This document shows, in pieces, positions 11,012 through 30,964 of a stretch of 40,229 nt of DNA. Every line of letters begins with the position of its first letter. Position 1 is the stretch's first letter. The notes under the pieces are model-generated. The model saw only the letters and a program-made list of their open reading frames with translations. It did not search any database and was not told where the DNA came from. Source of the stretch: Cyanobacteria bacterium UBA7694 (lineage in GTDB: Bacteria; Cyanobacteriota; Sericytochromatia; UBA7694); the NCBI GenBank assembly GCA_002482705.1, contig DLGM01000366.1:1-40229 (forward strand), given 5' to 3'. The position numbers were made by a program, and so were the translations under genes.

Positions 11012-11877
11012 TGCAGAAGTTGTGGTACGGCCTAGGGGCCGCTTTTAGCCTATGCTTTAGTGCTTATGCTGCCGAGATCGAAGTCAAACCAAGCACAACG
11101 CTCATTCAAGGACAGCCATTCCAAGTGCGCATAGCTGTAAACGAGAGTGACCCTACGCCCGCTCAGCTCACCTTTGGCACCCAAAAGATCCCCTTGAGCC
11201 AGGATGAACAAGGGCCGTTTGCGTTTGTCAGCAGCGCTGGCGACCAAAAGCCCGGTGGTTACACATTACGGATTTTGGACGCAGAAGGGCAAGTGCTCAC
11301 ACAGCAGCTCATCGAAATCAAAGCCGGAAGCTTTTATACCCAAAATATTCGTTACCGCGCACCGGTACCCAATCCCGAACAAAAAAAAATCTTAGACCAA
11401 GAAGAAGCCCTGGTTGACAAAGCTCGCTCGGCTTGGAGTCCGATCGCACTCTGGGGAACACAAGCCTTTACAGTCCCTGTGCCCCATCGCATCAGTGCCG
11501 TCTACGGGACGCGTCGTTATCTCAACGGCACTTATAATCGTTATCATTCAGGCGTCGATTTTGCCAGCCCTGGCGGTTACCCGATCAAAGCACCCGCTGC
11601 CGCCACCGTGACTTTAGCGCGCTATTTTTCACCCTTTAACTCCAATGGCAACATTGTCTTTCTGGATCATGGCGCAGGCATTACTTCTGTTTATATTCAC
11701 CTGAGCAAATTGGGTGTCAAAGAGGGTGAGCAGGTCACAGCCGGGCAAACCATAGGTTACATCGGGAGCACTGGCCGTTCTACCGGCCCTCATCTCCATT
11801 GGGGCCTGTATGTCCATGGGCAAAACACCGATGGCCTCGGCTGGATCAAATTGACACAGGCCCTAGCGAAGCCCTGA
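11011..11877 (+). CDS. M23 (LytM-type) metallopeptidase with signal peptide
   Basis: 288 aa. Motifs are YHSGVDFASPGGYPIKAPA and GSTGRSTGPHLHWGLYVHG (HxxxD and HxH). The start overlaps the carboxylase stop by 1 nt (TAATG). Confidence 0.9.
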   Translation: MQKLWYGLGAAFSLCFSAYAAEIEVKPSTTLIQGQPFQVRIAVNESDPTPAQLTFGTQKIPLSQDEQGPFAFVSSAGDQKPGGYTLRILDAEGQVLTQQLIEIKAGSFYTQNIRYRAPVPNPEQKKILDQEEALVDKARSAWSPIALWGTQAFTVPVPHRISAVYGTRRYLNGTYNRYHSGVDFASPGGYPIKAPAAATVTLARYFSPFNSNGNIVFLDHGAGITSVYIHLSKLGVKEGEQVTAGQTIGYIGSTGRSTGPHLHWGLYVHGQNTDGLGWIKLTQALAKP

Positions 11878-12489
11878 TCCCGCCAAAATTCGCGCCAGCT
11901 CCAACGCATCTACCGCCGGATTCCCAAGTGTTCCCTGAGCCTCAGACTGCTGTAACTCAGCCATCACCGTCCCAAGTTGTGACTGAAAGCGCCGCAGGGC
12001 ATTTTGCTGGTCACTTTGCTCCAGGGCACTGGTTTCTTGGATATCTGCTTTTAAATGCTGCACTTGGGGTAAAATCTTTTCATAATAATGGCGCTGATTC
12101 GCCTCCATCATTTTGCGGGCATATTCTAAGGAGCGATCCATGGCATCGAGCAAAGTCTGGATATTTTGCTGCTCTGCATCGCGTACCACAGCTAATATTT
12201 CAGCGACCTGTGGATCATTCCCATCCAATTGTCCCCGGGCCATCAGATCTGTCAGTGCATCACTGCCCGAAGCCGATGAATCCGCAAAAGAAACAGATTT
12301 GGGTTCGCCGCTGTGGGCCAAAGGCAAAGGGCTCACCCCATTGTGATCGGGGCTAAAAGTTGGCGTTTCAGAGGGTGAAATTGCAGGATTGGCACTATTC
12401 CCAGGAGTAAGAGGTACTGTAGGCCCGACCACTGGAGGCATTCCCGATACCCCCTCATGGTGATTCCCTGCCAGATGTAAGTGCGTCAT
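11863..12489 (-). CDS. Hypothetical protein with a Pro/Ser-rich N-half and a Gln-rich helical C-half
   Basis: 208 aa. A strong SD is present (GGAGG, 5 nt, ATG on the minus strand). The antisense + ORF 11799-12356 is W/C/H/P-rich and looks spurious. The 3' end overlaps the M23 gene end by 15 nt (convergent). Confidence 0.65.
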   Translation of the reverse strand: MTHLHLAGNHHEGVSGMPPVVGPTVPLTPGNSANPAISPSETPTFSPDHNGVSPLPLAHSGEPKSVSFADSSASGSDALTDLMARGQLDGNDPQVAEILAVVRDAEQQNIQTLLDAMDRSLEYARKMMEANQRHYYEKILPQVQHLKADIQETSALEQSDQQNALRRFQSQLGTVMAELQQSEAQGTLGNPAVDALELARILAGSGLR

Positions 12490-12828
12490 AGAAGCCTCCT
12501 ATCACTGAAACATGAAGGTATTGTACCCACCCTTGACTTTCTTTAAGCAAATGAGCGATCCCGATCACAATTGGGATCTGAGTGGTGATATAAAAACCAG
12601 AAAAACAAGACCATCATTGATTTACACATCATTTTTCTAATTGTTAAATTTATTTAGAAACCGTTAAGTCTGAGGCTGATTTGCTAAAGATGTTTAAATG
12701 ATCGTTTTTTTCAGCAAGTTTTGGGGGTGGGTGGCTATAGTTATTATGTAAAGATTAAAACGCTTAACTCAAGCTTAACCAGCACGGAAAGCAAACGACA
12801 GATTTAGACCATGTATGCGGAGGACCCC

Positions 12829-13182
12829 ATGAGCATCAACAGACTTAACGGAAACAACAGCAGTTTCGATTTTTCCGTTTCCAAGAACAGCCGCGCGGCT
12901 AAGGCGGGCGCAGCCGCTGGTCAAGGTGGATCCGTTCAGTCTGCAGGCGCAAAACCATCTGCCCAAGGCAACGGTGACATCCTTGCCATTAGCACCATCG
13001 CAGGTGCCGCTGGTGGTGGCGTTGCAGCCGCTCAAGTATCCCTCGGTGGCGGCAGCCTTCCTTCCACCACAGCCATCAGCGCCCTCAAAGGTGCAGCGGT
13101 CGAAATGACCAAAGAAAATCGTGAAAATCAAACCATCATGGCTTTGGCACAACAAATCGTCAACGACATGTTTGCCGCTTAG
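12829..13182 (+). CDS. Hypothetical Gly/Ala/Ser-rich, probably disordered protein with a C-terminal helix. A FlgM-like layout is possible but unproven.
   Basis: 117 aa from MSINRLNGNN. GGAGG at 12819-12823 lies 5 nt before the ATG at 12829. The track start at 12811 has no SD. It is the first gene of a tightly spaced three-gene set. Confidence 0.55.
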   Translation: MSINRLNGNNSSFDFSVSKNSRAAKAGAAAGQGGSVQSAGAKPSAQGNGDILAISTIAGAAGGGVAAAQVSLGGGSLPSTTAISALKGAAVEMTKENRENQTIMALAQQIVNDMFAA

Positions 13183-13193
13183 GAGCCAGAATC

Positions 13194-13565
13194 TTGAGCG
13201 AGCCAGCCATTGTTATTAACCTTGATGACGGCAAAGAAGCTCTCGTTCAACAGGTTAGCGAGATCTTAAAACGTTATTCCGTATACCTTAAAGAGGGGGA
13301 CATCAACCTCTCTTTTATTTTGCGTAAGAATGGTGAAAAAGATCGGGAATTCAGTTATAATTTCACCAAGGATGGGTATGAAACTAAGGAAAAAGACGTT
13401 GTCTTTCCTGTAGTGGTCCGCGAAATTCTACGCAAAGAGTTCCCTGAAAAAATTGCTTCCAACCCCAAACTGGTAAAGCATGTCATGCAGGATCTCAAAA
13501 ACGACCCTTACTGGTCTGACAATGTGGTCAAGTTACTGGACGCCATCCAGACCTACAGCAAGTAA
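13194..13565 (+). CDS. Hypothetical small charged cytoplasmic protein
   Basis: 123 aa with a TTG start 8 nt after AGGAG (13181-13185). It is AT-rich relative to its flanks. I recognise no motif. Confidence 0.6.
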   Translation: MSEPAIVINLDDGKEALVQQVSEILKRYSVYLKEGDINLSFILRKNGEKDREFSYNFTKDGYETKEKDVVFPVVVREILRKEFPEKIASNPKLVKHVMQDLKNDPYWSDNVVKLLDAIQTYSK

Positions 13566-13576
13566 GGAGAAGTAAC

Positions 13577-13891
13577 ATGGCGATTATCCCTATCTCTGAT
13601 TCAGGTCCGATGAAATCAGAAGTAGCCAAGCAAATGGGTACCCAAGCAAATCGGGATGCCACCAACCTTAAGATAACCCCCGCCCTTGAGCAAGTGGTGC
13701 ACCAAACTCCTTACGGCAAAGATGGGATGTTACTCTCCAATAAAGATCAGTACAGCGCACTGTCTACCATTCTGCCCAACTCTGAACTGGAAAAATCTCG
13801 CCAGGAACTCAAAAAAGAGAAGAAAAAAAAGAAAAAAGACAAAGAAGAAAAGAAGAAACAAAACTTCTGGCAGTGGCTGTTTTCTAAGTAG
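13577..13891 (+). CDS. Hypothetical protein with a poly-Lys tract and an aromatic C-terminal tail
   Basis: 104 aa. AAGGAG lies upstream of the ATG. The C-terminus reads ELKKEKKKKKKDKEEKKKQNFWQWLFSK. Confidence 0.6.
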   Translation: MAIIPISDSGPMKSEVAKQMGTQANRDATNLKITPALEQVVHQTPYGKDGMLLSNKDQYSALSTILPNSELEKSRQELKKEKKKKKKDKEEKKKQNFWQWLFSK

Positions 13892-13915
13892 TAATGGCCT
13901 CAGATATCACGTCTT

Positions 13916-13934
13916 AGCCCGGCCAGTCCGGGCT
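13916..13934 (+). terminator. Intrinsic terminator-like hairpin after the three small genes
   Basis: The hairpin is AGCCCGG-ccagt-CCGGGCT, followed by ttctacatttt. Confidence 0.6.
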
Positions 13935-13977
13935 TTCTACATTTTCAGCCTCAATTATCCACTATTTGCTTAAAATA

Positions 13978-14006
13978 TAGAAATAGACTTGAAAAAATGA
14001 TACAAT
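13978..14006 (+). promoter_or_regulatory. Extended -10 promoter candidate for the rod/hook-like gene
   Basis: TGaTACAAT lies at 13998-14006, with a weak -35 (TAGAAA, 13978-13983) at 17-bp spacing. It sits about 35 nt upstream of the ATG at 14042. Confidence 0.45.
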
Positions 14007-14041
14007 CATAGAACGTGAAGCAAGAATGGTGGAGGTACCCC

Positions 14042-15043
14042 ATGGCCGGAAGCGGAATGAATGGAATCAGAGATGCCCTCAAGGCAACCCAACAAATTAT
14101 TGGTATTGAAGCCTCTAATTTGGTACGCAGCCAAATCCCGGGTGCCCAAGAAGTCCGAGCCACTCTCAGCAACAACAATACCGTTCAGCTTGGTAACGGG
14201 AAACAAGCCGGTGCCGCAGGCGGCAGTATCTCAGCCACCACCCTCGCCTTTAACCAAGGTTCGATCCGCCCCACAGGCTTCACCACTGATTTGGCCATTA
14301 ACGGCAGTGGCTTCTTTATTTTACAGGCCTCTAACCAACAGCTCTATTACACCCGCCGGGGCGACTTCCACTTTGATGCCAGTGGGCAATTGGTCAATAA
14401 CGATGGTTTAAAGGTCATGAGCCTGAACCCCAGTACAGGCAAGCTGGAACCCATGACGGTCGAAGTCTCACCCACCACCACCGAAAATGGGGGTCGGATT
14501 CTCGACTTATTACGAGAAAATGATTCCCTCAGTGCCGCTGAGATCGAAACCGCCCTCGGATTACCCCCCGCTACCGTCAACGCAGAAATTGGCATTCTTC
14601 AAGCCTCTGAGTACATTGTCACCTTTAACCAAGCTGGGGTCACCCGTTATGCCAGCAACCTTGGCAAAGTGGGAGATCAGGTCGATTTTGACCGTGATGG
14701 TTTTTTGGTCAATCAGACCCGGGGCTTGCGCAAGGGCAACCAGTTGGCTTTGGCTGTTTTCCCCAACCCCCAAGGGTTGGCCCCCACCCAATTTGGAGGT
14801 GAGGTCTATAAAACGACAGATGCTGCTGCCCCTGGGGGCGTTCCCGATATTGGGGGTCCAGGAGATATCGGTTTAGATCTTGGCAGTATTCAAAGTCAAG
14901 CGTTAGAGAGTTCCACCAGTGATGTTCCCAATAGCCTTACAGCCATGGGAATCTGGCAGCGAAACTTCACGGCAACAACAGCCGCTCTGAAAACCTTTTT
15001 AGCTGCCTGGGATGATTTGGTTAACACTTTCCGCGCCGCATGA
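14042..15043 (+). CDS. Divergent flagellar basal-body rod / hook family (FlgF/FlgG/FlgE-like) protein with an internal winged-helix-like insert
   Basis: 333 aa from MAGSGMNGIRD. GGAGG at 14031-14035 lies 6 nt before the ATG. Family blocks are GIRDALKATQQIIGIEASNLV (N-terminal rod helix), TTDLAINGSGFFIL, YYTRRGDFHFDASGQLVNNDGLKV, QLALAVFPNPQGLAPTQFGGEVYKTT, and C-terminal ALESSTSDVPNSLTAMGIWQRNFTATTAALKTF. The insert (nt 14483-14656) reads ENGGRILDLLRENDSLSAAEIETALGLPPATVNAEIGILQASEYIVTFNQAGVTRY. Confidence 0.75.
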   Translation: MAGSGMNGIRDALKATQQIIGIEASNLVRSQIPGAQEVRATLSNNNTVQLGNGKQAGAAGGSISATTLAFNQGSIRPTGFTTDLAINGSGFFILQASNQQLYYTRRGDFHFDASGQLVNNDGLKVMSLNPSTGKLEPMTVEVSPTTTENGGRILDLLRENDSLSAAEIETALGLPPATVNAEIGILQASEYIVTFNQAGVTRYASNLGKVGDQVDFDRDGFLVNQTRGLRKGNQLALAVFPNPQGLAPTQFGGEVYKTTDAAAPGGVPDIGGPGDIGLDLGSIQSQALESSTSDVPNSLTAMGIWQRNFTATTAALKTFLAAWDDLVNTFRAA

Positions 15044-15510
15044 TTTTGTTATCCCTGCTGATGGGCTGTGGGCTATTATTAATTACCTGCAGCCTGATCG
15101 GAGGGGGGTTCTCACGCGAATACCGCTGGGTTCCGGCAGGAGTAGGCATGCTCTTGTTGATGCAAACCGGAATTTTGAGCATCAGGCAGCCACGCTCCAC
15201 ATCACCCCCACCAACAACAGAACAAGCAGCCATACGCTCCCTACATGACCCCAAGGCTCAAGACTGGCTCAATGCCTCCCCTGCTGTCCGTCAAGCTACC
15301 GCCATTCAATGGCTCAAGGATTTGCGTCTCCGCGGCACATTCGTTTTGACCATCCGCAGCGAAACGGAATATACGCAGTGGGCAGCCGCATTAAACCGTT
15401 GCCTAGAGCATAAGGCCGAGAAACTGAGTGCACAGACCGAACTCCTCAGTTTTGTAGAAACACAATGTTTACCCAAACTAAAACATTATCGTTATGGCAA
15501 AAACCCATAA
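15040..15510 (+). CDS. Hypothetical membrane-anchored protein, translationally coupled to the rod/hook-like gene
   Basis: 156 aa. Its ATG overlaps the upstream stop (ATGA, 15040-15043). It has two N-terminal hydrophobic segments and then a soluble domain. I recognise no motif. Confidence 0.6.
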   Translation: MILLSLLMGCGLLLITCSLIGGGFSREYRWVPAGVGMLLLMQTGILSIRQPRSTSPPPTTEQAAIRSLHDPKAQDWLNASPAVRQATAIQWLKDLRLRGTFVLTIRSETEYTQWAAALNRCLEHKAEKLSAQTELLSFVETQCLPKLKHYRYGKNP

Positions 15511-15546
15511 AAAATACCCGAACTACACAAGGTAGCCGGGTATTTT
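15511..15546. terminator. Bidirectional intrinsic terminator between convergent transcription units
   Basis: AAAATACCCG (15511-15520) pairs with CGGGTATTTT (15537-15546). An inner CTAC/GTAG stem is also present. The A-tract and T-tract flanks would allow it to work in both directions. Confidence 0.7.
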
Positions 15547-15558
15547 AATTAAGCTCTA

Positions 15559-16140
15559 CTACAAGCTAGCGAGATAAGCCGTCAAATTCGTGAACTCTTC
15601 ATCAGTCATGCTCGCGCGCATAGGCGGCATAGCAGGGGGGAAACCCTCTACAACGTGCGCATTAGGATTTTCAATCGATGTTTTAATGTAAGTTAACGCA
15701 TCCTGACCAGCAACACGCTTAGCCGCCGTAGCCCCAAGCCCATCCAAAGCAGGCCCAATGGCACCGTTGGCGCCTTGAAGACTGGAGATTTTATGGCAGG
15801 TTGCACAGGTTTTAGCCAAGAAGACCTTGGCACCCGCTTCTACATCACCTGCTGCCACGGGCGTCGCAGCGGGTTCATTCGCTGCGGTATGTCCGCTCTC
15901 CGTTGAAGCATGTGTACTGGGTGCGGTTTCAGTTTTAGTTCCATGCTCGGGAGCATCAGCGCTATGGCCCGAAGCAGCCGCATGGGTTTCCGTTTGCGCC
16001 CCATGGTCACCGCCTTCGGCACTGTGATGGCCTGCAACGGCATTTGTAGTTACCACGGAAACCACAAACAGCACACCCACGATGGCTATCACCGAGAGGA
16101 ATGAGAGCGCAATGACCTTGAGTTGATCGATAGGTTTCAT
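15559..16140 (-). CDS. Membrane-anchored mono-haem cytochrome c with a His-rich linker
   Basis: 193 aa. It has an N-terminal TM helix, a His-rich spacer (GHHSAEGGDHGAQTETHAAASGHSADAPEHG...) and a C-terminal CATCHK haem-binding domain. Confidence 0.85.
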   Translation of the reverse strand: MKPIDQLKVIALSFLSVIAIVGVLFVVSVVTTNAVAGHHSAEGGDHGAQTETHAAASGHSADAPEHGTKTETAPSTHASTESGHTAANEPAATPVAAGDVEAGAKVFLAKTCATCHKISSLQGANGAIGPALDGLGATAAKRVAGQDALTYIKTSIENPNAHVVEGFPPAMPPMRASMTDEEFTNLTAYLASL

Positions 16141-16169
16141 GAGTTATATTCCTTTTCTAAAATCGCACG

Positions 16170-16382
16170 TTAGTGGTGCTCACCCGCACCCTCATGCGAG
16201 GATGTGGTTTCATGGCCTGTTGAACCATGGTCTGTATTGCCATGGCCTTCTTCATGATGAGCATCGGCTTTAGGAGCCGGATCAGGCATAGCCATAGACA
16301 GGGCACTCAGGGCGCCAATCATGACCAACACAGCGGCAAGACCCGCAAAAATAGGTTTAAGTGACTGCTTATTAGACTGCAT
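16170..16382 (-). CDS. Small single-TM protein with a His-rich C-terminal tail
   Basis: 70 aa. One TM segment (IFAGLAAVLVMIGALSALSMA) is followed by HHEEGHGNTDHGSTGHETTSSHEGAGEHH, which has 8 His in 29 residues. It lies between ctaG and the cytochrome c gene. Confidence 0.6.
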   Translation of the reverse strand: MQSNKQSLKPIFAGLAAVLVMIGALSALSMAMPDPAPKADAHHEEGHGNTDHGSTGHETTSSHEGAGEHH

Positions 16383-16412
16383 AATTGCCTCTTTGAATTC
16401 GGTAGTTGACTA

Positions 16413-17318
16413 TCATATTTTAACTGTAATCGAGTTCGAGTCGGAGAGCCCTTGGATAGAGGTGGGCTCTTTTTGGCGTTCGCTGCGATACCATTTGGTA
16501 AATACACCAATGAAAACGAAGCTGAAAACACCCATAGAAACAAGCTTCATGAGTACTCCCCCCATTTGCTGATCACCCAGCGCAGACACCCCAATTAAGC
16601 GTGGAGCCAGCTCATAGGTCGGATAAAGCACATAAGATGAAAAGGTGACATAAGCAAATACGGGAATCTGAGCCACCGTCAGTGACAGCAAATAAAGCAT
16701 TTGTTTGGGATAAGAAAGCTGATAACGCTCCAAAGGCCCCATGATGGGGAGCCACATCAGTAACGCAGTTGAGATAAACGTGATGTGCTCAAGGTTATGC
16801 ACCATTCGATCTCGCAAGGCCCAATCATACAGGAATGGGATATGCCACAGGGTAAACACCATATTAAAAGCCAAACAGGCAAAAATCGGGTGAGTGGCAA
16901 AACGTAAACCCTTTTTTAATAACGGATAACGCGCAATAAAAGGGTCTAACATCCAGTTTGGTACACCAGATAAGATCAAGCGAGGTGCCAAATACATAAA
17001 CAGATTGTGCTGAAACATATGCATGGCAAAAAGGTACTGTTCACCAATTGCGTCAATGGGAGAGGCAATCCCCGTATAAATAACGCTCCAACCCAAAACA
17101 AAACGCACTGCCTGACCCCGGGTTAAAACCGTTTCGGAAGAGCGGACGCGCGCCTGATGAGCAGCACGGAAATAAACAAAAAAGAGGGCTAGAATGGCCG
17201 CCAATGGCACCCATTCTAGCTTCCACTCCCACCAGATAGAGATTGGTACGTCATCCATCGGCACGGCCGCGAAACCGTGGGCCAGAGCCGGTGGAGATAA
17301 CCAGTCAAGCAGGAGCAT
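16413..17318 (-). CDS. ctaG: Cytochrome c oxidase assembly factor CtaG (caa3/Bacillus type, polytopic membrane protein)
   Basis: 301 aa, polytopic. The sequence shows FAMHMFQHNLFMYLAPRLILSGVP, WHIPFLYDWAL and HNLEHITFI, typical of the Caa3_CtaG family. It sits in the oxidase cluster. Confidence 0.8.
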   Translation of the reverse strand: MLLLDWLSPPALAHGFAAVPMDDVPISIWWEWKLEWVPLAAILALFFVYFRAAHQARVRSSETVLTRGQAVRFVLGWSVIYTGIASPIDAIGEQYLFAMHMFQHNLFMYLAPRLILSGVPNWMLDPFIARYPLLKKGLRFATHPIFACLAFNMVFTLWHIPFLYDWALRDRMVHNLEHITFISTALLMWLPIMGPLERYQLSYPKQMLYLLSLTVAQIPVFAYVTFSSYVLYPTYELAPRLIGVSALGDQQMGGVLMKLVSMGVFSFVFIGVFTKWYRSERQKEPTSIQGLSDSNSITVKI

Positions 17319-17326
17319 AATAACCC

Positions 17327-17959
17327 TTATAACTTGGCCAAATAGGCCACAAGGTCATTATATTCGGTGTCAGACATGCTCTGACGCAGGTTAGCAGGCA
17401 TCAAGCCGGCTGGGAAGCCCTCTACCACATAGGCATTGGGGTTTTCAATCGACTCACGGATATATGCCGTGACATCCTTACCCGCCAGTTTATCCGCAGG
17501 GCGCTGAGACAAGCCGTCTAAAGCCGGGCCCACCGCACCCACAGCCCCAGCGAGACTGCTGATTTTATGGCAGGCGGCACAACCTTTGGCTGAGAAAACA
17601 GCCGGACCATTTTCAGGATTGCCTTGGGTCATTGCTTGCAACTGCTTCGTATCTTTGACGCTAATTGCAATTTTAGTGGGTTGATAGTTAATCAGCGCCA
17701 CCATGGCAACCATCGTGCCAAGAGCAATGGTAAAACCACTGAAGAAAATACCCGTCAGCAGTTTATTGTCATACTTCAAGTGCATGAAGTAGGCCACTAC
17801 CAAACCAAATTTAAACGCTGCCAAGACATACAAACCTGTAAGCATCAAGCTATCAGGGATAGCAATGTAAAGGATAGCAACTTCAACAGCGGTCACAACA
17901 GCCAAAATTCCGGCCATTGCCCAATAGGTTTTAGAGTGATCGTGATGTTCGCCGCTCAT
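17327..17959 (-). CDS. Cytochrome c oxidase subunit IV (prokaryotic type) fused to a C-terminal mono-haem cytochrome c domain
   Basis: 210 aa from MSGEHHDHSKTYW. Three TM helices end in AYFMHLKYD (the COX4_pro-like part), followed by CAACHK and a domain paralogous to the 193-aa cytochrome c. The ATG at 17959 lies 2 nt after the ctaE stop. The track extension to 18040 overlaps ctaE. Confidence 0.8.
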   Translation of the reverse strand: MSGEHHDHSKTYWAMAGILAVVTAVEVAILYIAIPDSLMLTGLYVLAAFKFGLVVAYFMHLKYDNKLLTGIFFSGFTIALGTMVAMVALINYQPTKIAISVKDTKQLQAMTQGNPENGPAVFSAKGCAACHKISSLAGAVGAVGPALDGLSQRPADKLAGKDVTAYIRESIENPNAYVVEGFPAGLMPANLRQSMSDTEYNDLVAYLAKL

Positions 17960-17961
17960 GG

Positions 17962-18585
17962 TTAACCCCCTATGCCCACAAATTCGACCAAGTAGATCAC
18001 TGTAAAGATAACAATCCAAACAATGTCTACAAAGTGCCAATACAATCCCGTCGACTCAATATCTACGGCCTTGTCACTTATATCTCCAAAATAGGAGTAG
18101 ACAAACCAAGAGAAGAGCCAAAGGACGCCGATCGCCACGTGTAAACCGTGGGTCCCGGTCATGGTGTAAAAAGTCGAGCCAAATAGGTTTTTCTGGAGTG
18201 TGACACCCCGATGGAAAAACTCGGTGAACTCAAACGACTGGAAACCTAAAAATATCAGGCCGAAAAAAGCAGTGGCAAAGATCCAGAGACGGGTTTGACC
18301 AATGTCTTTACGGTTGACTGCAGCCACTGCCAGTGCCATAAACAAACTGCTCATCAGCAGCACAAATGAACTGGCAGTGGTAACGGGAATACTCAGCACT
18401 TCGACTGGGTAAGGCCCAACTAAACTTTTGCCGTGATAAATAATGTAAGTGGAGATCAACGTTCCGAAGAACATACAATCCGAGGCCAAGAAGGCCCACA
18501 TCAGAACCTTCTTGTTCGGAATACCCGTATACGAGTGCTCCACGTGATGATGCTGATCGTGTTCAGCGATAGCTGCGTGACCCAT
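17962..18585 (-). CDS. ctaE: Cytochrome c oxidase subunit III
   Basis: 207 aa and five TM segments. Typical sequences include FFGTLISTYIIY, FYTMTGTHGLHVAIG and YWHFVDIVWI. It overlaps the ctaD stop by 1 nt (TAATG). Confidence 0.92.
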   Translation of the reverse strand: MGHAAIAEHDQHHHVEHSYTGIPNKKVLMWAFLASDCMFFGTLISTYIIYHGKSLVGPYPVEVLSIPVTTASSFVLLMSSLFMALAVAAVNRKDIGQTRLWIFATAFFGLIFLGFQSFEFTEFFHRGVTLQKNLFGSTFYTMTGTHGLHVAIGVLWLFSWFVYSYFGDISDKAVDIESTGLYWHFVDIVWIVIFTVIYLVEFVGIGG

Positions 18586-20501
18586 TAGTTGTGAGCCCCA
18601 CTTTCTTTGGATGGATCAACATGGTAGCCACCGGGGCCTTCCAAGGCCCAGCCGTAAACCCCAAAGATCAGAGCCAACATGCCAGCGCCAGCAATCAGAA
18701 AACCACCAGGAGCATCTTTATAAATCATGCCCATTGCCCAGACAAACATACCGATACCAACAACCATAGGGTAATAAGAAGCGGCAGGCATGTGGATCGG
18801 ATGACCATCATACTGCGGCTTGGGTTTACCCGTTATTTTACTGTGCCAGAAGTCGTCAAGGTGGGTGACCGTCGGAATCGCAGCAAAGTTGTATTCCGGC
18901 GGAGGAGAAGGAATACTCCACTCAAGGGTGCGAGCATCCCAAGGGTCATCTCCGGCAATAGCTCCTTTTTTGAGACCCATTGCCATATTGATAAAGAAGA
19001 ACAACAGACCAAAAGCCAGGACAAAGGCACCGATGGTACACACCAAGTTCCAGAAATTCCAGCCCATGTCACCTGAGTAGGTGTAAATGCGGCGGGGCAT
19101 TCCGTTCAAACCCAGAATGTGCATCGGGAAGAAGGTGACGTTAAAGCCAATCATGATCGTCCAGAAGGCCACTTTACCAAAGGCTTCGTTCATCATTCGG
19201 CCTGTGATTTTAGGGAACCAGTAAGCCAGTCCGCCTAACAGGGCCATCAGCGTGCCACCAATCAGAACGTAGTGGAAGTGAGCAACAACAAAATAGGTAT
19301 CGTGCTGTTGGGCATCAGCCGCTGCCGCAGAGTGCATCACGCCGCTGAAACCACCAATGGTGAACATGGCAATAAAACCGGTAGCATAGAGCATCGGTGT
19401 GGCAAAACGGATATGACCGCCCCACATCGTGCCGATCCAGTTGAAGATTTTAACGCCTGTCGGAACCGCAATGATCGAAGTGGTGATCGAGAAAGCCAGC
19501 GTAGCAATCACGCCCATACCCGTGGTGAACATATGGTGGCTCCAAACGGCAAAGCCCATGAAACCAATAAATGCACCGGAGAAAACAATCAGCGGATAAC
19601 CAAACAACGGCTTGCGTGAGAAAGTCGGCAGAATTTCAGAAACAACACCCATTGCTGGCAAGATCAGAATATAAACTTCGGGGTGGCCAAAAATCCAGAA
19701 CCAGTGTTGCCAAAGGATGACAAGACCACCTGCAGCCACGTTAAAGAAGTTGGCCCCAAACATCCGGTCCATCATGAGCTGGATCAGCGCAATTGTGATC
19801 GGTGGGAAAGCCAAAAGAATCAGAATATTGGTAATGAATGTCATCCATACAAACACGGGCAAACGCATCAGGGTCATACCCGGAGCGCGCATATTAATGA
19901 TGGTGACGAAGAAGTTCAGTGAAGCGGCCACAGAGGCAACCCCCAAGACCAGAAGACCCATTACCCAATAATCGGCACTTAAACCAGGGTTAAATTGTTT
20001 CGAGGTAATGTTGGCATAACCCACCCAACTCGCGTTGGGGGCACTGCCGGTTAACCAGCTCACGTTGAGGAGCGCGGCCCCGGCCCAAAACACCCATAAA
20101 CTGAACGCATTCAGCCTTGGGAATGCTACGTCCCGAGCCCCAATCATCAGGGGCACTAAGTAGTTAAAGAACGCAGAACTCAATGGCATAATCGCCAAGA
20201 AAATCATGGTGGTTGCGTGCATGGTGAACATCTGGTTATAGATGTCCGCAGGCAGCACGCTCAGATTGGGAGCAGCTAGCTGCAAACGCACCAATAACGC
20301 CTCAACTCCCCCGACAACGAGGAAGAAGAGTGCGCTCAGGCCGTAAAGAATGCCAATGCGCTTGTGGTCAACGGTGGTTAACCAGCTCCACAGCCCTGTC
20401 TTTGCGACCGGGCGAGGGCCTAGAACGCCGAGCTCCCGGTCTGTATCGGAGTGCCCATGGGCAGGCGAGGCGACCCCTATTACATCCGCACTTGTTGCCA
20501 T
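18585..20501 (-). CDS. ctaD: Cytochrome c oxidase subunit I (A-family haem-copper oxidase)
   Basis: 638 aa. Signatures are WFWIFGHPEVYILILP, WSHHMFTTG and HFHYVL. Confidence 0.97.
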   Translation of the reverse strand: MATSADVIGVASPAHGHSDTDRELGVLGPRPVAKTGLWSWLTTVDHKRIGILYGLSALFFLVVGGVEALLVRLQLAAPNLSVLPADIYNQMFTMHATTMIFLAIMPLSSAFFNYLVPLMIGARDVAFPRLNAFSLWVFWAGAALLNVSWLTGSAPNASWVGYANITSKQFNPGLSADYWVMGLLVLGVASVAASLNFFVTIINMRAPGMTLMRLPVFVWMTFITNILILLAFPPITIALIQLMMDRMFGANFFNVAAGGLVILWQHWFWIFGHPEVYILILPAMGVVSEILPTFSRKPLFGYPLIVFSGAFIGFMGFAVWSHHMFTTGMGVIATLAFSITTSIIAVPTGVKIFNWIGTMWGGHIRFATPMLYATGFIAMFTIGGFSGVMHSAAAADAQQHDTYFVVAHFHYVLIGGTLMALLGGLAYWFPKITGRMMNEAFGKVAFWTIMIGFNVTFFPMHILGLNGMPRRIYTYSGDMGWNFWNLVCTIGAFVLAFGLLFFFINMAMGLKKGAIAGDDPWDARTLEWSIPSPPPEYNFAAIPTVTHLDDFWHSKITGKPKPQYDGHPIHMPAASYYPMVVGIGMFVWAMGMIYKDAPGGFLIAGAGMLALIFGVYGWALEGPGGYHVDPSKESGAHN

Positions 20502-20528
20502 ACAGTCCTCTCTAGGTTTCCTAACACG

Positions 20529-21566
20529 TTATTTCAAACTCTTAAGGTATGCGACCAGCGCATTCACATCGCGGTCAGACAAAACCATATTGACCTGCTC
20601 AAGATTCATCAGGTTCCCAGGTTTCATACCTTTGGGATCACGAATCCATTTGGCGAGGTTTTCATCTGTATTGTCATAAATTGCCGAGCCCAAGGTTTCA
20701 CGGCTACCAAAGTGCGTGAGGTCAGGCCCCACAACGCCCATGGCACCAGTGCCTTTGACGGCATGGCAGGAGTTACAACCCTTCATAAAAATCTGCTGAC
20801 CATTAACTTGGTCAGGACTTTCAGGTTTTACCCCATCTTTTTTCTGGTCTCTAACCCACTGGTCAAAATCAGCTTGCTCGTGTGAGTACACCAGAAAGCG
20901 CATATTGGCGTGGGAGTCGCCGCAAAATTCGGTACATTGACCGTAAAACTTATCGGCTTTATCGGCTTTAAACCAGATTTTGTTGATTTGTCCAGGGACA
21001 ACGTCCATTTTACCAGCTAGCTTAGGAACCCAGAAGCTGTGCAAAACATCTGCAGACTTCAGGTCGAAGTCGACCGGACGGCCAGCAGGAATATGCAATT
21101 CATTGGCTGTTGTAATGCCTAGATCAGGGTACTGGAATTCCCACCACCACTGGTGACCAATCGCCACAACTTTAATGGGCTCACCTTCCTCTTTGGGAGG
21201 AGCCTCCATTAAGAAAAGGGCTTTAGCGTTGGGTACAGCGATGACCAACAGCAAAATACAAGAAGCAATAATCAAGGCGATTTCTACGTTTGCATTGCCG
21301 TGACTTTGTTCGGGAACCGAGTCCTCTTCGCCCGGCTTGGAGCGAAAACGAATCAGGGTGTAAAAAAAGACGCCACCCACCGTCAAGGTCAGGAATACAA
21401 CAATGGCCAAAGTCCACCAGAATACGTGTAATTGTTCACGCGCAACGGGACCTTGGACATCAAAAGTAGACATGCCGTCCATTAAGGCAAAAGCATTAAA
21501 CTGGAGGAAGAGGGAGTAACAGAACACCAACAGTGTCTGTAATAGGCGTTTCGATTTTGTGTTCAC
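20529..21566 (-). CDS. ctaC: Cytochrome c oxidase subunit II with a fused C-terminal cytochrome c domain (caa3 type)
   Basis: It has the CuA motif CTEFCGDSHANM and a C-terminal CNSCHAV haem c site. I prefer the GTG start at 21566, 6 nt after GAGGA. The track's TTG at 21572 directly abuts the SD. Confidence 0.93.
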   Translation of the reverse strand: MNTKSKRLLQTLLVFCYSLFLQFNAFALMDGMSTFDVQGPVAREQLHVFWWTLAIVVFLTLTVGGVFFYTLIRFRSKPGEEDSVPEQSHGNANVEIALIIASCILLLVIAVPNAKALFLMEAPPKEEGEPIKVVAIGHQWWWEFQYPDLGITTANELHIPAGRPVDFDLKSADVLHSFWVPKLAGKMDVVPGQINKIWFKADKADKFYGQCTEFCGDSHANMRFLVYSHEQADFDQWVRDQKKDGVKPESPDQVNGQQIFMKGCNSCHAVKGTGAMGVVGPDLTHFGSRETLGSAIYDNTDENLAKWIRDPKGMKPGNLMNLEQVNMVLSDRDVNALVAYLKSLK

Positions 21567-21922
21567 TGTCAATCCTCAGATGATCTAATTCTAAGATTGT
21601 TCTACGTCAAGAAGTGGGTCTAACGCAACTTATTGTTTCAGCGTGAGGAATAACCCTTAGTAACATAACTTTTCTAAATATAGATACAATCCACTCATAT
21701 ACACTTTAGCACAGGTAGCTTGCAATATGACACGCCCTTAGCCCTTAAGGTTGGGTCGCGCATACACAGGAATAGCGAGAGCTTAGCATATACATGACGT
21801 GGAACATTGTATTAAAATGGTGGGTGTTGGGGCTTGTAACTCTTAATCGAACTTTTAATTTATCTTGAGCAAACATTAGCCTTAGCCCCCCCCTATTAAA
21901 ACGTTTGAGGAGACCATACTGA

Positions 21923-22834
21923 GTGAGTGCAAATACCTCCGTCGTTACGGGTACATCACTCAAGTCCTTCCGTAGCGTAGCCCACGACATCTATGAACTG
22001 ACTAAACCCCGCATCACCTTTCTGATGCTGATTACGACCTTTACCGGGATGTGGCTTGCAGCCAGAGGCCTTCCGCCCCTGCTCACAACCCTCTACACCA
22101 TGATTGGGGTCGGTTTGGCTTCTGCCTCGAGCTGCGCACTGAATAACTACATTGATCGCGAGATTGACCGGGAGATGACCCGTACCCGTAACCGTCCTCT
22201 CCCAGGGGATCGCCTGGATCCCAAAGTCGCCATTTATCTCGGTTTTACGCTAGGACTTTTGTCTTTTGTCCTATTGGCCACCACGGTCAACCTCCTGACC
22301 GCCAGCCTGGCACTGTTTACCAATTTCTTTTATGTTGTCATTTATACCCTCTGGCTTAAGCGCACAAGCCCTTTGTGTACCTCAATTGGGGGCATTTCAG
22401 GCGCGCTACCCCCCGTGATTGGCATAACCGCTGTCACTGGCACCATTACTCCCGCAGCAATTGCACTTTTTGTGTTTATGTATCTTTGGCAACCGCCTCA
22501 CTTCTGGGCCCTGGCGATCATTCGCAAAGACGAGTATGCGCGCGTGAACATCCCCATGCTCCCCGTTGTGAAAGGGGATCGGGTGACCAAACGTCAAATG
22601 CTGATTTATACGGTCGCACTCATTCCTGCCAGTATGGCCCTGACTTGGTTAGGCGTTACTGGCTGGATGTACGCAGCCACAGCTCTGGTCATGAGTTTAA
22701 TTTACTTGGGCTTGACCATTGATTTTGCCCTGCGCCCCGTCACTGCCAAGTACTCTTACCGCCTGTTCTTTTTCTCTATTCTGTATTTGTGTTTGCTGTT
22801 CGTCATGATGTTTGTCGACTGCTTGCCAGCCTAG
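21923..22834 (+). CDS. ctaB: Protohaem IX farnesyltransferase (haem O synthase)
   Basis: 303 aa with a GTG start, preceded by GAGGAG. UbiA-type motifs include NNYIDREIDREMTRTRNRPLP. The protein is polytopic. Confidence 0.93.
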   Translation: MSANTSVVTGTSLKSFRSVAHDIYELTKPRITFLMLITTFTGMWLAARGLPPLLTTLYTMIGVGLASASSCALNNYIDREIDREMTRTRNRPLPGDRLDPKVAIYLGFTLGLLSFVLLATTVNLLTASLALFTNFFYVVIYTLWLKRTSPLCTSIGGISGALPPVIGITAVTGTITPAAIALFVFMYLWQPPHFWALAIIRKDEYARVNIPMLPVVKGDRVTKRQMLIYTVALIPASMALTWLGVTGWMYAATALVMSLIYLGLTIDFALRPVTAKYSYRLFFFSILYLCLLFVMMFVDCLPA

Positions 22835-22842
22835 AGGGTACC

Positions 22843-23496
22843 ATGTCCGAGTCAAATCGCAATATACGTTTACCCTTTGCCCTGGTTTTGGCCATGTTCT
22901 CTCTGGGCATGGCCGCCGTTTTTGTCTATCAAAATCTCAAACCAAGTCAGTCTCAGGCACTGCCAATATACGGAACCGTAGCAGACTTTGCTTTTACGGA
23001 ACGATCTGGACAAACCTTTGACTCCAAGCATCTGCGCGAGCAATTTTGGGTGGCTGACTTCATCTTTACCACCTGTCAGGCCGAGTGCCCGATCATGAAT
23101 GCAGAAATGACCCGTATTCAGCAACATTATGCAAAAGAACAGCGCTTAAAACTGGTTTCATTTAGTGTAGATCCTGAAACTGACACGCCCGCGGTGTTAA
23201 AAAGTTATGCCGATAAATTTGCGGCCGATCCCAACCGCTGGTTTTTTTTAACGGGGGATCGCTCCAAACTCCATCAATTGGCAACGGAAAGCTTCAAGTT
23301 GGCGGTGCAAGATTTGGGCAATGCCCACGCCAACCACCACGACGCCAAACAGCCCACGCGTGGGCCTTTCCTGCATAGTCAAAAGCTGGTTTTAGTCGAT
23401 GACAAATTCCGCATTCGCGGCTATTATGATGGAACCCAGCGGGACGAGGTTGAGCGCCTCATACAGCAAGACTTGCCTCGTCTCCTCAAACAATAA
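22843..23496 (+). CDS. SCO1/SenC-family copper chaperone (thioredoxin fold)
   Basis: 217 aa from MSESNRNIRL. It has a TM anchor and FIFTTCQAECPIM (CxxxC), plus a downstream conserved His region. It starts 8 nt after the ctaB stop. Confidence 0.88.
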   Translation: MSESNRNIRLPFALVLAMFSLGMAAVFVYQNLKPSQSQALPIYGTVADFAFTERSGQTFDSKHLREQFWVADFIFTTCQAECPIMNAEMTRIQQHYAKEQRLKLVSFSVDPETDTPAVLKSYADKFAADPNRWFFLTGDRSKLHQLATESFKLAVQDLGNAHANHHDAKQPTRGPFLHSQKLVLVDDKFRIRGYYDGTQRDEVERLIQQDLPRLLKQ

Positions 23497-27753: not shown

Positions 27754-29625
27754 TTATTCGTCGTTGAGTACCCGGCTGAAACGGGCCGTTTTAACTGGTG
27801 CTTGGGATATCGCCCCAGGGCTGCGCAATTGATTGATATACTTTTTCCGCTGCGGCAAATGCACAGCGGAAAGCTGAAACTCTTGCACCATTTCGCGTAA
27901 TTCTTCGCCAAATTCAGCCACAGCCCGGGCCGATTCAAGGGTTTGTTGAGCAATACGATCATTCCCGTGAGCTACCTTTTCAACCTCTGAAACGGCGGCC
28001 TGGGTCCGCTCAATCGAAGTCACCTGACGGGCGGTATCCAAACGAATCGCCTGAGAGGCCTTGCTAATATCAGCCGTTGCCTGCACAATCTGCTGATTGC
28101 TTTCTTCTTGGCGCTCAGTGGCCTGCACAATTTGTTTGATCATCTGACTGACCTGCTCAATCGTTTGGACCGTGTTTTCTGTATTAAAGGCCTGGGCTTT
28201 GACTTCTTCGGTAACTTTGTTGACCTGATGGCTCATGTCTTCAGCACGAGCGGCAATATGCTCAGCAGCGCGGGCCTGTTCTTCGGCCCCCTCTCTGATT
28301 TGTTCAATCAAACTCACCGTAGTCTCTACGCCCTTGATAACCTGATTAATTTTACCGCCTGTTTCAGCAGCCAAACGAGCCCCTTCTTCTGCCTGGTTTA
28401 CCCCACCACGGACAGTTTTCACCGCACCTTCAGCCTCCACTTGGATACCACGAATCAGCTCCGAGATTTCTTTAGTGGCACGGCTGGAACGCTCAGCCAG
28501 TTTGCGCACCTCATCAGCGACCACAGCAAAACCTTTCCCATGCTCACCAGCCCGAGCCGCTTCAATCGCAGCGTTAAGCGCCAATAAGTTAGTCTGATCA
28601 GAGATATCATCAATAACATTAATAATTTCACCGATTTTCTGGGTGCTAGCACCCAGATGCTCAATAACACTAGAAGCTTCTAGAACAACCTCTTTGAGAT
28701 GGTTTATGCCGTGAATGGTCTTTTGCACCGAGGCACTGCCTTCAAAGGCCGCTTCCTGCATATCTTGGCCCAAACGGGCACCCTCTTGAATACTAAAAGA
28801 GACCTCATTAAAACTGGAGGAGAGCTGATTAATGGCCGCTGAGACATCCGCAGTGCCTCGGCTGATAAACTCTGCACTGCGACGGATTTCATTAAAGGCA
28901 TTAAAGTTTTGGGAAACAACGATGGATACTTGGTCACTCGCATTAGAAAGCTTCTGAATGCTGCTGGTCGATTCCGTTAGATTTTTTGCCACCTGCTCAA
29001 TTTGGCGATTGGTTTCGGTAGCACGCAAAGCCAGAGCTGAGGCCTGTTCATCAATACCGCGCACCGATCGGCTGACTTCTTCCATAGAGCCCGATATCTC
29101 AGAAATAGCCGAAGCCTGTTTGGCTGCACCCGTCGCTGTTTCGCGGGCCAAAGACTGAATTTCCCCAGAAGCTTGGGCAGTTTGGTTAGAGGTTTCTAAG
29201 ATGCGGCCAAATTTTTCATTGAGGTTATGGGTCATCTCATTAAAGGTATGGGCCAGTTCGGCAAATTCGTCCTGGGTACGCACTACCGCTGTGCGCGTAA
29301 GATTCCCACCCGCAATTGAGTTGGCAACTTGGTTGACCTCCTTGAGGGATCGGGTAATCTGACGGGTTTGGCGGAAAGCCAGAACCAGCAAAATCAGTTG
29401 TGACAACCCAAACCACACAACGGTAGGCCAAAATATTTGTGACTGAATACGCACACTTTCTTGATAAAGACGGGTCGTCTGCTCAGTTTTAACATCAATG
29501 TGCGTATACATTCCCTGAAGCTTTTGGCTCAGTTGGCCTAGCCCTGTCAAACTGATAATAACAATCACCAGCAGCGAAAACGAGGTAATCGAGAAACTTA
29601 CCATCAGCTTGGCAAATATTTTCAT
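27754..29625 (-). CDS. Methyl-accepting chemotaxis protein with a minimal periplasmic loop, a HAMP domain and an unusually long signalling domain
   Basis: 623 aa from [11 protein letters not shown]. Its ATG overlaps the cheW stop (ATGA). It has two TM segments separated by about 35 aa, and a HAMP domain ([19 protein letters not shown]...[13 protein letters not shown]). The conserved hairpin tip is [40 protein letters not shown]. The track extension to 29787 overlaps cheW. Confidence 0.92.
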
Positions 29626-30080
29626 ACAGCCTCCTGTAGTTGAGGGGTTAAGTGATAATCCTGTAAGACCGTATCGAGAGAAAGCACCATAAAAATCCCA
29701 TCCTTGAGGCGTCCAACCCCCAATACAGCATCTTGATAAGCGAGCGCACTGGTAACCGGTTCGAGGGGGATTTCTGACAAAACCCACACTTCCATGACCT
29801 GATCGACCACCAAACCAATGCTTTCATCTTGGCTGCGGACAATAATAAAACGGGTAGAAGCCTGAAGCGGCTCAGCACCCAAACCTAAACGAGGGGCTAA
29901 ATGAATCAGCGGGACAATTTGACCCCGCAAATTGATGACGCCAGCAATCCAGTTTGGGGTGAGTGGAACTGGGGTAATCGGCAACGGGCGAATAATCTCT
30001 TGCACATTGAGAATATCGAGGGCATAACGCTCCGCCGCCAAACGAAAGCTGACCACCTGTTGAATGGTGCTGAGTGTCAT
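29622..30080 (-). CDS. cheW: Chemotaxis coupling protein CheW
   Basis: 152 aa. The sequence [32 protein letters not shown]...[14 protein letters not shown] is typical of the CheW fold. Confidence 0.9.
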
Positions 30081-30568
30081 GGGGTTGGCCTCCGGTATAA
30101 CAGAGCATGCACCGAGAATGCCCCCTGTTCAGTGGCAATCGGCACTGCAAAATGTAACCATGGGGGAGGCAGCACATGGGCAGGAGGCTGTACTCCCGCC
30201 AAGTCAAAGACTTGGGGCAGCCCAATGCTAAAGAGATCTTGACGTTGTTGGGTTAAGGCCGTTTTAATGCCGCCAGCAATCATATTGGTAACTTCAGCCA
30301 CCGCCTCAAGCACTTCTTCATTCACAGTCATTAAGGGTTCTTGTAAAAGACGTGCAGCCAGCTCAATCGCCAGCGGGTAAGAGAGCTGCAGAGAGAGAGA
30401 CCCGTTGAGCTGCCCATGAATATCGATGGTTCCCAACACTTCTGGTGGGGGTAACTCAGGATTGACATCTGGCAAAATCCGCAGGGGAATCATCGTAGAA
30501 AACAACTGTTTCACGGAAATTCTCACTGCGTCGATAAAGGCACGCTCCTCCAGCAGCACTGCTCCCAA
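30077..30568 (-). CDS. cheX: CheX/CheC-family CheY-P phosphatase
   Basis: 163 aa. It has EAVAEVTNMIAGG (the E-x2-N catalytic motif in the CheC/CheX/FliY family) and sits between cheY and cheW. The start is uncertain: TTG lies 3 nt after the cheY stop and there is no clear SD. Confidence 0.75.
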   Translation of the reverse strand: MGAVLLEERAFIDAVRISVKQLFSTMIPLRILPDVNPELPPPEVLGTIDIHGQLNGSLSLQLSYPLAIELAARLLQEPLMTVNEEVLEAVAEVTNMIAGGIKTALTQQRQDLFSIGLPQVFDLAGVQPPAHVLPPPWLHFAVPIATEQGAFSVHALLYRRPTP

Positions 30569-30571
30569 CCG

Positions 30572-30964
30572 CTAGACGCGTAGAGGCACAACTTTTTTGA
30601 GTGTCTTGGTCAGCGTTTCAGCCGTAAAGGGCTTCACGATATATTCATTGACCCCCGACTCCATGGCCTCCGTGACTTTATCAATGGTGCCTTCAGTGGT
30701 AATCATAATAATCTGTACAGGTTTTTCCCGCGCACTGGTGGCTTCATATTCGCGCAGTTTACGCACAAACTCTAGGCCATTCATTTTCGGCATATTCCAG
30801 TCGCTCAGCACCACATCAAGGGTTTCTGATTTGAATACTTCGAGCGCCTTCTCCCCATCGGGAGCCTCAAGGGTATGTGCATTGGCATAAGGGCCGGTAC
30901 TGAGGTGCTTCTTGATGACTTTGCGGGTTACGCTCGAGTCGTCTACGATCAAAATCGAGGTCAT
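30572..30964 (-). CDS. cheY: Chemotaxis response regulator CheY
   Basis: 130 aa. Motifs are ILIVDDSS, VVLSDWNMPKMNG, IMITTEG and YIVKPF. GGAGG lies upstream. Confidence 0.92.
   Translation of the reverse strand: MTSILIVDDSSVTRKVIKKHLSTGPYANAHTLEAPDGEKALEVFKSETLDVVLSDWNMPKMNGLEFVRKLREYEATSAREKPVQIIMITTEGTIDKVTEAMESGVNEYIVKPFTAETLTKTLKKVVPLRV

Follow-up and report, generated by a model that had tools for sequence, protein, structure and literature searches.

An isolated hook-type axial protein of Sericytochromatia carries a winged-helix domain in place of D2 and is encoded beside five orphan protein families

The axial proteins FlgE, FlgG and FlgF, which are united in the family TIGR03506, possess D0 helices and a D1 β-domain and are devoid of cysteine. 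In rods and hooks, the wall of the tube is built from D0 and D1. FlgE carries a further domain, D2, canonical FlgE, FlgG and FlgF match the Pfam families PF00460 and PF06429, and canonical flgE resides in a flagellar cluster. The outer part of hook proteins can vary while D0 and D1 are kept: In Campylobacter jejuni (79-kDa FlgE fragment; PDB 5az4, 5jxl) as well as in Poribacteria (FlgE of 722 amino acids (aa); loci L015–L018), the protein bears extra β-rich domains and is encoded in a flagellar cluster. Here we analyze a stretch of 40,229 nucleotides (nt) from Cyanobacteria bacterium UBA7694 (contig DLGM01000366.1), which we refer to as the window and number along its forward strand. This organism belongs to Sericytochromatia, the non-photosynthetic sister class of cyanobacteria. 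The window contains a block of six genes, designated A to F (11863–15510), in which gene E encodes a relative of the hook and rod proteins with equally retained D0 and D1 and a variable outer part. In contrast to the Campylobacter and Poribacteria proteins, its outer domain has shrunk to a helix-turn-helix-type fold, and its gene is isolated. An orphan hook-type protein with a winged-helix insert has not been described previously in the literature searched. The core of the block is a variant of a known axial family and not a new kind of system, whereas the five surrounding families are genuine unknowns.

Gene E (14042–15043, + strand) encodes a hook-type axial protein of 333 aa, a length between those of FlgG (260 aa) and FlgE (402 aa), and shares with both the D0 helices, the D1 β-domain and the complete lack of cysteine. 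The protein scores 120.2 bits against the NCBIfam model TIGR03506 (FlgEFG_subfam; cut-off 70.25) and 52.7 bits against the Pfam D1 domain PF22692 (cut-off 27; E-value 4.9e-14). In an AlphaFold model computed with 18 homologues, residues 4–30 and 300–332 constitute the D0 helices, and residues ~83–137 and ~211–285 form a β-rich D1 domain. All 44 of the 44 Foldseek matches of this model with an E-value ≤ 0.001 are chains of FlgE, FlgG or FlgF (E-values 6e-12 to 5e-5). Profile alignment by hhalign with the E. coli proteins yields probabilities of 98.4% for FlgE (E-value 6e-15), 97.2% for FlgG and 74.6% for FlgF, and places residues 55–134 of E on residues 46–124 of FlgE and residues 209–321 on residues 284–393. 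These results agree with the first-pass annotation of this DNA, which had described the central gene as rod/hook-like, and identify E as an axial protein of the FlgE/F/G family that is closest to FlgE. Nevertheless, it fails all equivalog models of FlgE, FlgG and FlgF by a wide margin; two of them, for instance, require 400 and 350 bits, where E scores 98 and 96.

The E family comprises ~32 clusters with 52–59% identity, all of ~330 aa, and every named cluster originates from metagenome-assembled genomes of Candidatus Sericytochromatia or Blackallbacteria. Its invariant residues are concentrated in D0 and D1, the D0 helices being conserved as well as D1, and the family is under purifying selection. 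A distant relative without the insert, P0033 (252 aa), is encoded on a contig of 62% GC (L021, 1078–1836), where it has a CxxCxxCC-family gene on one side, a DUF58-like gene on the other and no flagellar neighbours.

The most conspicuous departure from the canonical architecture is the outer domain. Between the two hhalign blocks, E contains an insert of ~65 residues (residues 148–205; 14483–14656, + strand) that enters D1 at the same point as D2 does in FlgE; because the aligned blocks flank the insert at this very site, the winged helix replaces D2 exactly. Its core (residues 151–200) is modeled with a predicted local distance difference test score (pLDDT) of 84–91. The insert superimposes on MecI, ArsR-type and SqrR repressors with a root-mean-square deviation of 1.1–2.7 Å over 54–66 aligned columns (Foldseek), while its score of 21.3 bits against Pfam HTH_24 lies just under the cut-off of 21.9. 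With the MarR/ArsR/MecI regulators it shares both the H-S-H-H-S-S order of elements and the pattern ILxxLxxxGxxxxxxIAxALGxxxxxVxxxLxxLxxxGYV. It differs from them in being embedded in another protein, in its acidity and in the near-absence of basic residues in the recognition helix and wing. In all 17 of the 17 members that carry the insert, its net charge is −2 to −9 and its pI 4.1–4.8, with 2–5 Lys and Arg per 71–75 residues, and the charge analysis found a basic recognition helix or wing suited to DNA contact in none of them. DNA binding, which the fold brings to mind, was therefore rejected as unlikely. The insert is moreover the least conserved part of E, and its acidity and low conservation fit an exposed surface domain. 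No helix-turn-helix-type outer fold occurs among the solved hook and rod structures that were returned by the Foldseek and PDB searches.

We consider it about an even bet (a probability of roughly 0.5) that E is a working, divergent hook protein that leaves the cell by flagellar-type export and assembles into a hook-like tube. According to this proposal, the gate, of the flagellar type III kind, would be encoded at another place in the genome and E would pass it in the unfolded state; the exported subunits would polymerise via D0 and D1 into a tube whose surface would be studded with winged-helix domains, the insert facing outward. F would be made together with E as a small membrane partner, and A–D might serve the same pathway as substrates or helpers peculiar to this lineage.

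The cysteine content is of interest with regard to such an export. Within the E family there is not a single cysteine in 5907 residues of 18 members, the insert included, and the families of A–D contain ~3 cysteines in ~6800 residues. The other genes of the window (n = 28) have a mean cysteine content of 0.73%; at the cysteine frequency of the window, the absence of this residue from the 885 consecutive residues of A–E would be expected with a probability of only ~0.15% by a Poisson estimate. No hydrophobic signal sequence or membrane span was found in A–E, as judged by the absence of any 19-residue window with a Kyte–Doolittle mean > 1.6. A near-absence of cysteine, as seen in A–E, is typical of proteins that leave through the flagellar channel and would be compatible with such a route, without amounting to proof of it.

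F (15040–15510, + strand, 156 aa) is the most consistent partner of E. The start codon of F and the stop codon of E overlap as ATGA, an arrangement that recurs as a 4-bp overlap in locus L013. One or two membrane helices at its N-terminus precede a C-terminal domain of ~100 aa, which is marked by the motif IRS..EY.PW..AL..C and by a pair of invariant cysteines; judging from its sequence, this cysteine-pair domain probably faces the periplasm. In locus L039, an E homologue with insert (59% identity) is followed by an F homologue (hmmsearch E-value 5.5e-18), and A, B, C and D were not found there within 10 kb of E. F is absent from the L006/L010/L012 clade. In the window, a σ70-like promoter with an extended −10 element (TAGAAA-17-TG-n-TACAAT; 13978–14006, + strand), assigned by its match to the consensus, lies 36 nt upstream of the start codon of E; relatives show a loose GATAA-like element at the corresponding site. 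The promoter does not resemble the σ28 type. Downstream of F, a bidirectional terminator hairpin (15511–15546, both strands) separates F (+) from the cytochrome c gene of an oxidase cluster (−). It folds with −15.8 (+ strand) and −22.7 kcal/mol (− strand), corresponding to z-scores of −4.2 and −5.5, and no shuffled sequence folded as well. E and F are thus predicted to share a promoter of their own and to be transcribed apart from B, C and D.

Several observations weigh against a working hook. Neither PF00460, the N-terminal rod motif, nor PF06429, the C-terminal domain, is reported for E even at an E-value ≤ 1, and 33 of 33 family members lack both in precomputed Pfam assignments, whereas the canonical matches all carry both. 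The terminal helices themselves are present in E, as judged by an alignment by eye and by the NCBIfam model PRK05682 (residues 13–131). Among the homologue matches of E, there is no canonical FlgE or FlgG labelled Sericytochromatia. When 41 E. coli flagellar and motility proteins were used as tblastn queries, no other flagellar gene was detected within ±10 kb of E in 13 distinct Sericytochromatia loci, nor is there any besides E in the 40-kb window and ~10 kb past its right end; the matches in these loci and the window were confined to E, CheY and the housekeeping sigma factor. The same queries recovered FlgD, FliG, FliI, FliM/N, FliPQR, FlhAB and MotAB around FlgE in the control loci from Poribacteria and Firmicutes (L015–L020). 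The Pfam gene tables of the flanks agree with tblastn in that they list no flagellar neighbours, so that E, in contrast to canonical flgE, lies outside a flagellar cluster and has neither flgD nor fliK beside it. Finally, a conserved σ28-type promoter upstream of E or B was not found across the loci compared. A candidate for such a FliA-dependent promoter was considered and discarded: L002 alone has a perfect −10 element, GCCGATAA, and the other loci show no consistent match. In L002 this element stands ~45 nt upstream of the start of E and has no matching −35; its score was reached by 3 of 200 shuffles.

Besides E, the sole feature of the window related to motility is a chemotaxis cluster (27754–30955, − strand) ~12 kb from the block. 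It comprises genes for a CheY-like receiver (~30590–30955), CheX (30077–30568), CheW (29622–30080) and a methyl-accepting chemotaxis protein with a HAMP domain (27754–29787), and no CheA gene was found in it. CheX-type phosphatases usually accompany flagellar systems.

The foremost alternative is that Sericytochromatia of this kind have neither a flagellum nor an export gate and that a hook-type protein from a flagellated ancestor has been retained by selection for another job together with F, and perhaps with A–D. It might, for instance, build a filament or tube of a non-flagellar kind, either in the cytoplasm or at the envelope, and the winged helix would then serve as a new interaction surface. 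We regard this as somewhat unlikely. It would explain why E lies away from flagellar genes in every locus, as does the insert-less P0033, why the canonical N- and C-terminal Pfam motifs have been lost throughout the family, why a fold typical of the cytoplasm stands in for D2, and why E is stably associated with orphan families that are found almost nowhere else. The literature found points in the same direction, as it describes flagella among the cyanobacterial relatives only in Melainabacteria, the other non-photosynthetic class, and our search returned no description of flagella in Sericytochromatia. However, the D0 helices, which are known to assemble the tube once the subunits have passed type III export, are conserved as well as D1, and the total lack of cysteine has been maintained in E including the insert. 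The cysteine pair of F suggests a periplasmic domain, which would imply that E is exported, and the chemotaxis cluster contains CheX, which is usually linked to flagella. To our knowledge, nearly all genomes with a gene of the FlgE/F/G family are flagellated. The more specific scenario, in which the hook-type protein has outlived the flagellum and builds, with F and possibly with the cysteine-free A–D, a non-flagellar structure displaying winged helices, appears doubtful to us.

A further question is how the neighbouring genes relate to E. We compared 13 distinct Sericytochromatia loci with enough flanking sequence, in 12 of which A (on the opposite strand), B, C, D and E are adjacent. The block is therefore syntenic in relatives, and the chance juxtaposition that the first-pass annotation had named as its own refutation is not what the loci show. 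Four flank arrangements were observed: The block lies between the carboxyltransferase and M23 peptidase genes and the oxidase cluster, or, without F, between TPR–GltX and the oxidase cluster; alternatively, the carboxyltransferase and M23 genes precede it and are joined on its far side either by asd–hemC–hemA or, in L038, by LssY_C-like and helicase genes. The neighbouring carboxyltransferase is 81–88% identical among loci, which, together with the gene order and the named homologues of E, fits an origin of the window in this class. The genes asd–hemC–hemA follow the block directly in L001 (11486–14812) and lie ~30 kb away, past the oxidase, cell-wall, chemotaxis and NADH-dehydrogenase genes, in the species of the window (L024/L025, 17344–20640), a difference that points to an insertion or rearrangement between the lineages.

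Within this conserved neighbourhood, the block appears to consist of three separable units, [A], [B-C-D] and [E-F], which are usually neighbours in the class; we consider them separable because B-C-D is found beside genes other than E, E-F stands alone in L039, and F is missing from one clade. Distant B-C-D trios occur on short contigs, namely L026 (1–1239), L027 (149–1358) and L028 at 64–65% GC and L034 (1370–2812) at 30% GC. The strong differences in base composition among these contigs indicate that the trio predates Sericytochromatia and extends beyond this class. On the high-GC contigs L026–L028, the gene after D is phosphodiesterase-like or convergent and not E, and the contig L034 ends just past D. 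In L026 and L028, the product of the gene after D begins with ILGFDG and resembles a phosphodiesterase or pyrophosphatase. Since the units are separable, a functional link of A–D to E would rest on an adjacency that is conserved within one class, to which the shared near-absence of cysteine may be added.

A, B-C-D and E-F could also be unrelated neighbours in a little-rearranged region whose gene order was simply inherited. In most loci the order of the carboxyltransferase, the M23 peptidase and the oxidase cluster is likewise kept, which shows that gene order is generally stable here, and the units can indeed be found apart (L039, L026–L028, L034). Yet the A–E core has remained intact despite changes on either side of it in the L010/L022 clade, in L001 and in L038, and the shared depletion of cysteine in A–E, at ~0.15% expected, would be surprising for unrelated neighbours. 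We therefore think this explanation unlikely.

Gene A (11863–12489, − strand, 208 aa) is an open reading frame with the Shine–Dalgarno (SD) sequence AGGAGG and is separated from B by a divergent, AT-rich spacer of 339 bp (12490–12828) with a GC content of 37.8% versus 50.7% for the whole window. This region contains σ70-like sites on both strands (12621–12650 on +, 12772–12743 on −), and A is predicted to be transcribed divergently from B-C-D. The open reading frames of B (12829–13182, + strand, 117 aa), C (13194–13565, + strand, 123 aa) and D (13577–13891, + strand, 104 aa) are separated by gaps of 11 nt each; B and D are preceded by SD sequences, and C starts with TTG behind the SD sequence AGGAG. 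Beyond D lies a terminator hairpin (13916–13934, + strand) with a 7-bp GC stem (GCCCGGC-CAGTC-CGGGC...) and a T-rich tract. Taken alone, this hairpin is not statistically unusual when its folding is compared with that of shuffled sequences (z = −1.2). A GC hairpin with a T-run follows D in 9 of the 9 related loci inspected, each time with a different sequence, and because the structure is kept while its sequence differs, we take it to mark a real, conserved terminator position. For the same reason, B-C-D constitutes a transcription unit of its own. An Rfam search of the window returned zero families.

Just past the terminator of D, ~85–95 nt upstream of the start of E, a semi-conserved element TTAAA-N4-5-CAT[CA]AA is present in L001, L002, L004, L005, L006, L010, L012 and L013 and is weak in the window (~13950–13970); it could bind a regulator or belong to the promoter. 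The near-identical initiation regions of B and E, GGAGGaCCCCATG and GGAGGtaCCCCATG, to which the first-pass annotation had drawn attention, are present as described, but do not hold up as a shared regulatory element: Relatives keep GGAGG upstream of E and not CCCC, so that GGAGG..CCCCATG was ruled out as a regulatory signal for lack of conservation, and the likeness is best read as a strong SD sequence combined with chance. B has an alternative in-frame ATG at 12811, which would add MYAEDP to its N-terminus (12811–12828), and similar peptides, MYVEDN and MCVEDK, precede the start of B in L005, L001 and L004. This resemblance probably reflects conservation of the GAGGA Shine–Dalgarno region and not of a coding sequence.

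None of the five partner proteins belongs to a described family as far as our searches reach. Consistent with the first-pass annotation, which could name no motif in them, A, B, C, D and F gave zero matches in Pfam and NCBIfam, and PDB profile searches with the same five were empty or returned coiled-coil noise only. In hhalign comparisons of the five families with 26 E. coli flagellar proteins, probabilities stayed below 3% throughout and below 1% for A. The profile and structure searches thus do not turn the partners into FlgM, FlgN, FliS or another described family. A, C, D and F were also considered as a chaperone, FliE, FliK, FlgD or FliL, which hhalign and the PDB profile searches ruled out. 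With FlgM, FlgN/FliS/FliT and FliE the partners have in common their small size, the apparent disorder of B and D and the lack of cysteine; they differ in that no homology is detectable by Pfam, NCBIfam, PDB profiles, hhalign or BLASTP and in that a σ28-type promoter is missing.

The N-terminal half of A is variable, rich in proline and serine and presumably disordered. Behind it lie a helical core of ~60 aa, which is conserved (DPxV..LL..VR..E..NIQ.LLD.MQ.SLDRA....YY...LP), and a coiled coil rich in Gln and Glu; a profile search with A returned 16 clusters only, all lineage-restricted. B (pI 9.4) consists of a short N-terminal segment, an Ala/Gly-rich middle of low complexity, a D-x-L-x-LS motif and a conserved C-terminal helix, and looks disordered and largely of low complexity. 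Its MSIxR start, the hexapeptide NSRAAK shared with FlgM and the C-terminal helix had prompted us to consider B as FlgM, an assignment that found no support: The FlgM domain PF04316 had zero matches in nine members at an E-value ≤ 10, the comparison with E. coli FlgM gave a probability of 0.2% in hhalign and an E-value of 0.35 in BLASTP, and the PDB profile search with B did not find FlgM.

C is the best-conserved protein of the block, with 51 clusters, all at ≥ 67% identity, and reaches 67–81% where E reaches 52–59%; distant members with 34–45% identity belong to the B-C-D trios of other lineages. It is predicted to combine an α/β N-terminal half with a helical C-terminal half and bears the conserved motif DVVFPVVV.EIL.KEFP...A.N..L..HV...L..DPYWS. 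AlphaFold modeled C with low confidence (pLDDT 61); the best Foldseek match of this weak model had an E-value of 0.43, and the PDB profile search gave no significant match. Likeness of C and A to the chaperones FlgN, FliS, FliT and FliJ was sought by Pfam, NCBIfam and hhalign (< 3%) with negative outcome, and Foldseek with the weak model of C returned none with an E-value < 0.4. D (pI 9.7) shows the invariant motifs [IV]SDS, YGxDG and TILP, followed by a linker of poly-Lys and, at the C-terminus, the tip FWxWLF; an exhaustive phmmer search over 1.84 billion representatives yielded only 5 matches. The tip, F-W-x-x-L-F, is invariant and is preceded by poly-Lys in Sericytochromatia and by poly-Glu in distant relatives; the combination of a charged linker with a hydrophobic tip recalls a tethered docking peptide.

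The reading originally proposed, by which the six genes form one late-flagellar or type III-substrate module with B and D as disordered substrates, C as chaperone, A as regulator or ruler, E as axial protein and F as membrane partner, can draw on the adjacency of A-B-C-D-E in 12 of 13 loci despite four flank arrangements, on the cysteine poverty of all five soluble proteins, on the apparent disorder of B and of the N-terminal half of A, on the charged linker of D and on the small size and very high conservation of C, but is improbable given that B-C-D ends in its own conserved terminator, that other lineages have a phosphodiesterase-like or convergent gene after D in place of E, that E-F stands alone in L039, that no partner resembles FlgM, FlgN, FliS, FliT, FliJ, FliK, FliE or FlgD, and that the poor model of C matches no chaperone fold. 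Of the compact locus initially described, the adjacency thus stands, whereas the single operon-like module gives way to three separable units.

On re-check, the positions first given for the six genes, the spacers, the hairpins and the promoter-like site all proved correct, and gene annotation agrees that the flanks are housekeeping genes with an M23 peptidase and a cytochrome oxidase cluster. One flank of the block is made up of acyl-CoA carboxyltransferase and M23 peptidase genes. The M23 gene and A are convergent and their 3′ ends overlap by 15 bp (11863–11877), by 4 bp in L001 and by 23 bp in L002, which leaves no space for a terminator between them. The other flank is a caa3-type oxidase cluster (15559–21572 and 21923–23496) in which c-type cytochrome domains are fused to several subunits and which includes CtaG, CtaB (UbiA family) and SCO1. 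It is convergent to the block in most loci, the exceptions being L001, L004, L013, L038 and L039.

If E is a working hook of Sericytochromatia, the outer domain of the hook would be swappable even for a helix-turn-helix-type fold, and the block would point to accessory proteins peculiar to this lineage, a sister group of cyanobacteria that has hardly been studied. If, on the other hand, it is true that these bacteria lack flagella, E would be a clear example of an axial protein that was kept and reused after flagellar loss, and its repurposing, in a lineage that is sister to cyanobacteria, would be a rare instance of the co-option of a flagellar tube subunit for another function. Either way, the B-C-D trio and the E-F pair define five unannotated families with clear boundaries, motifs and gene contexts.

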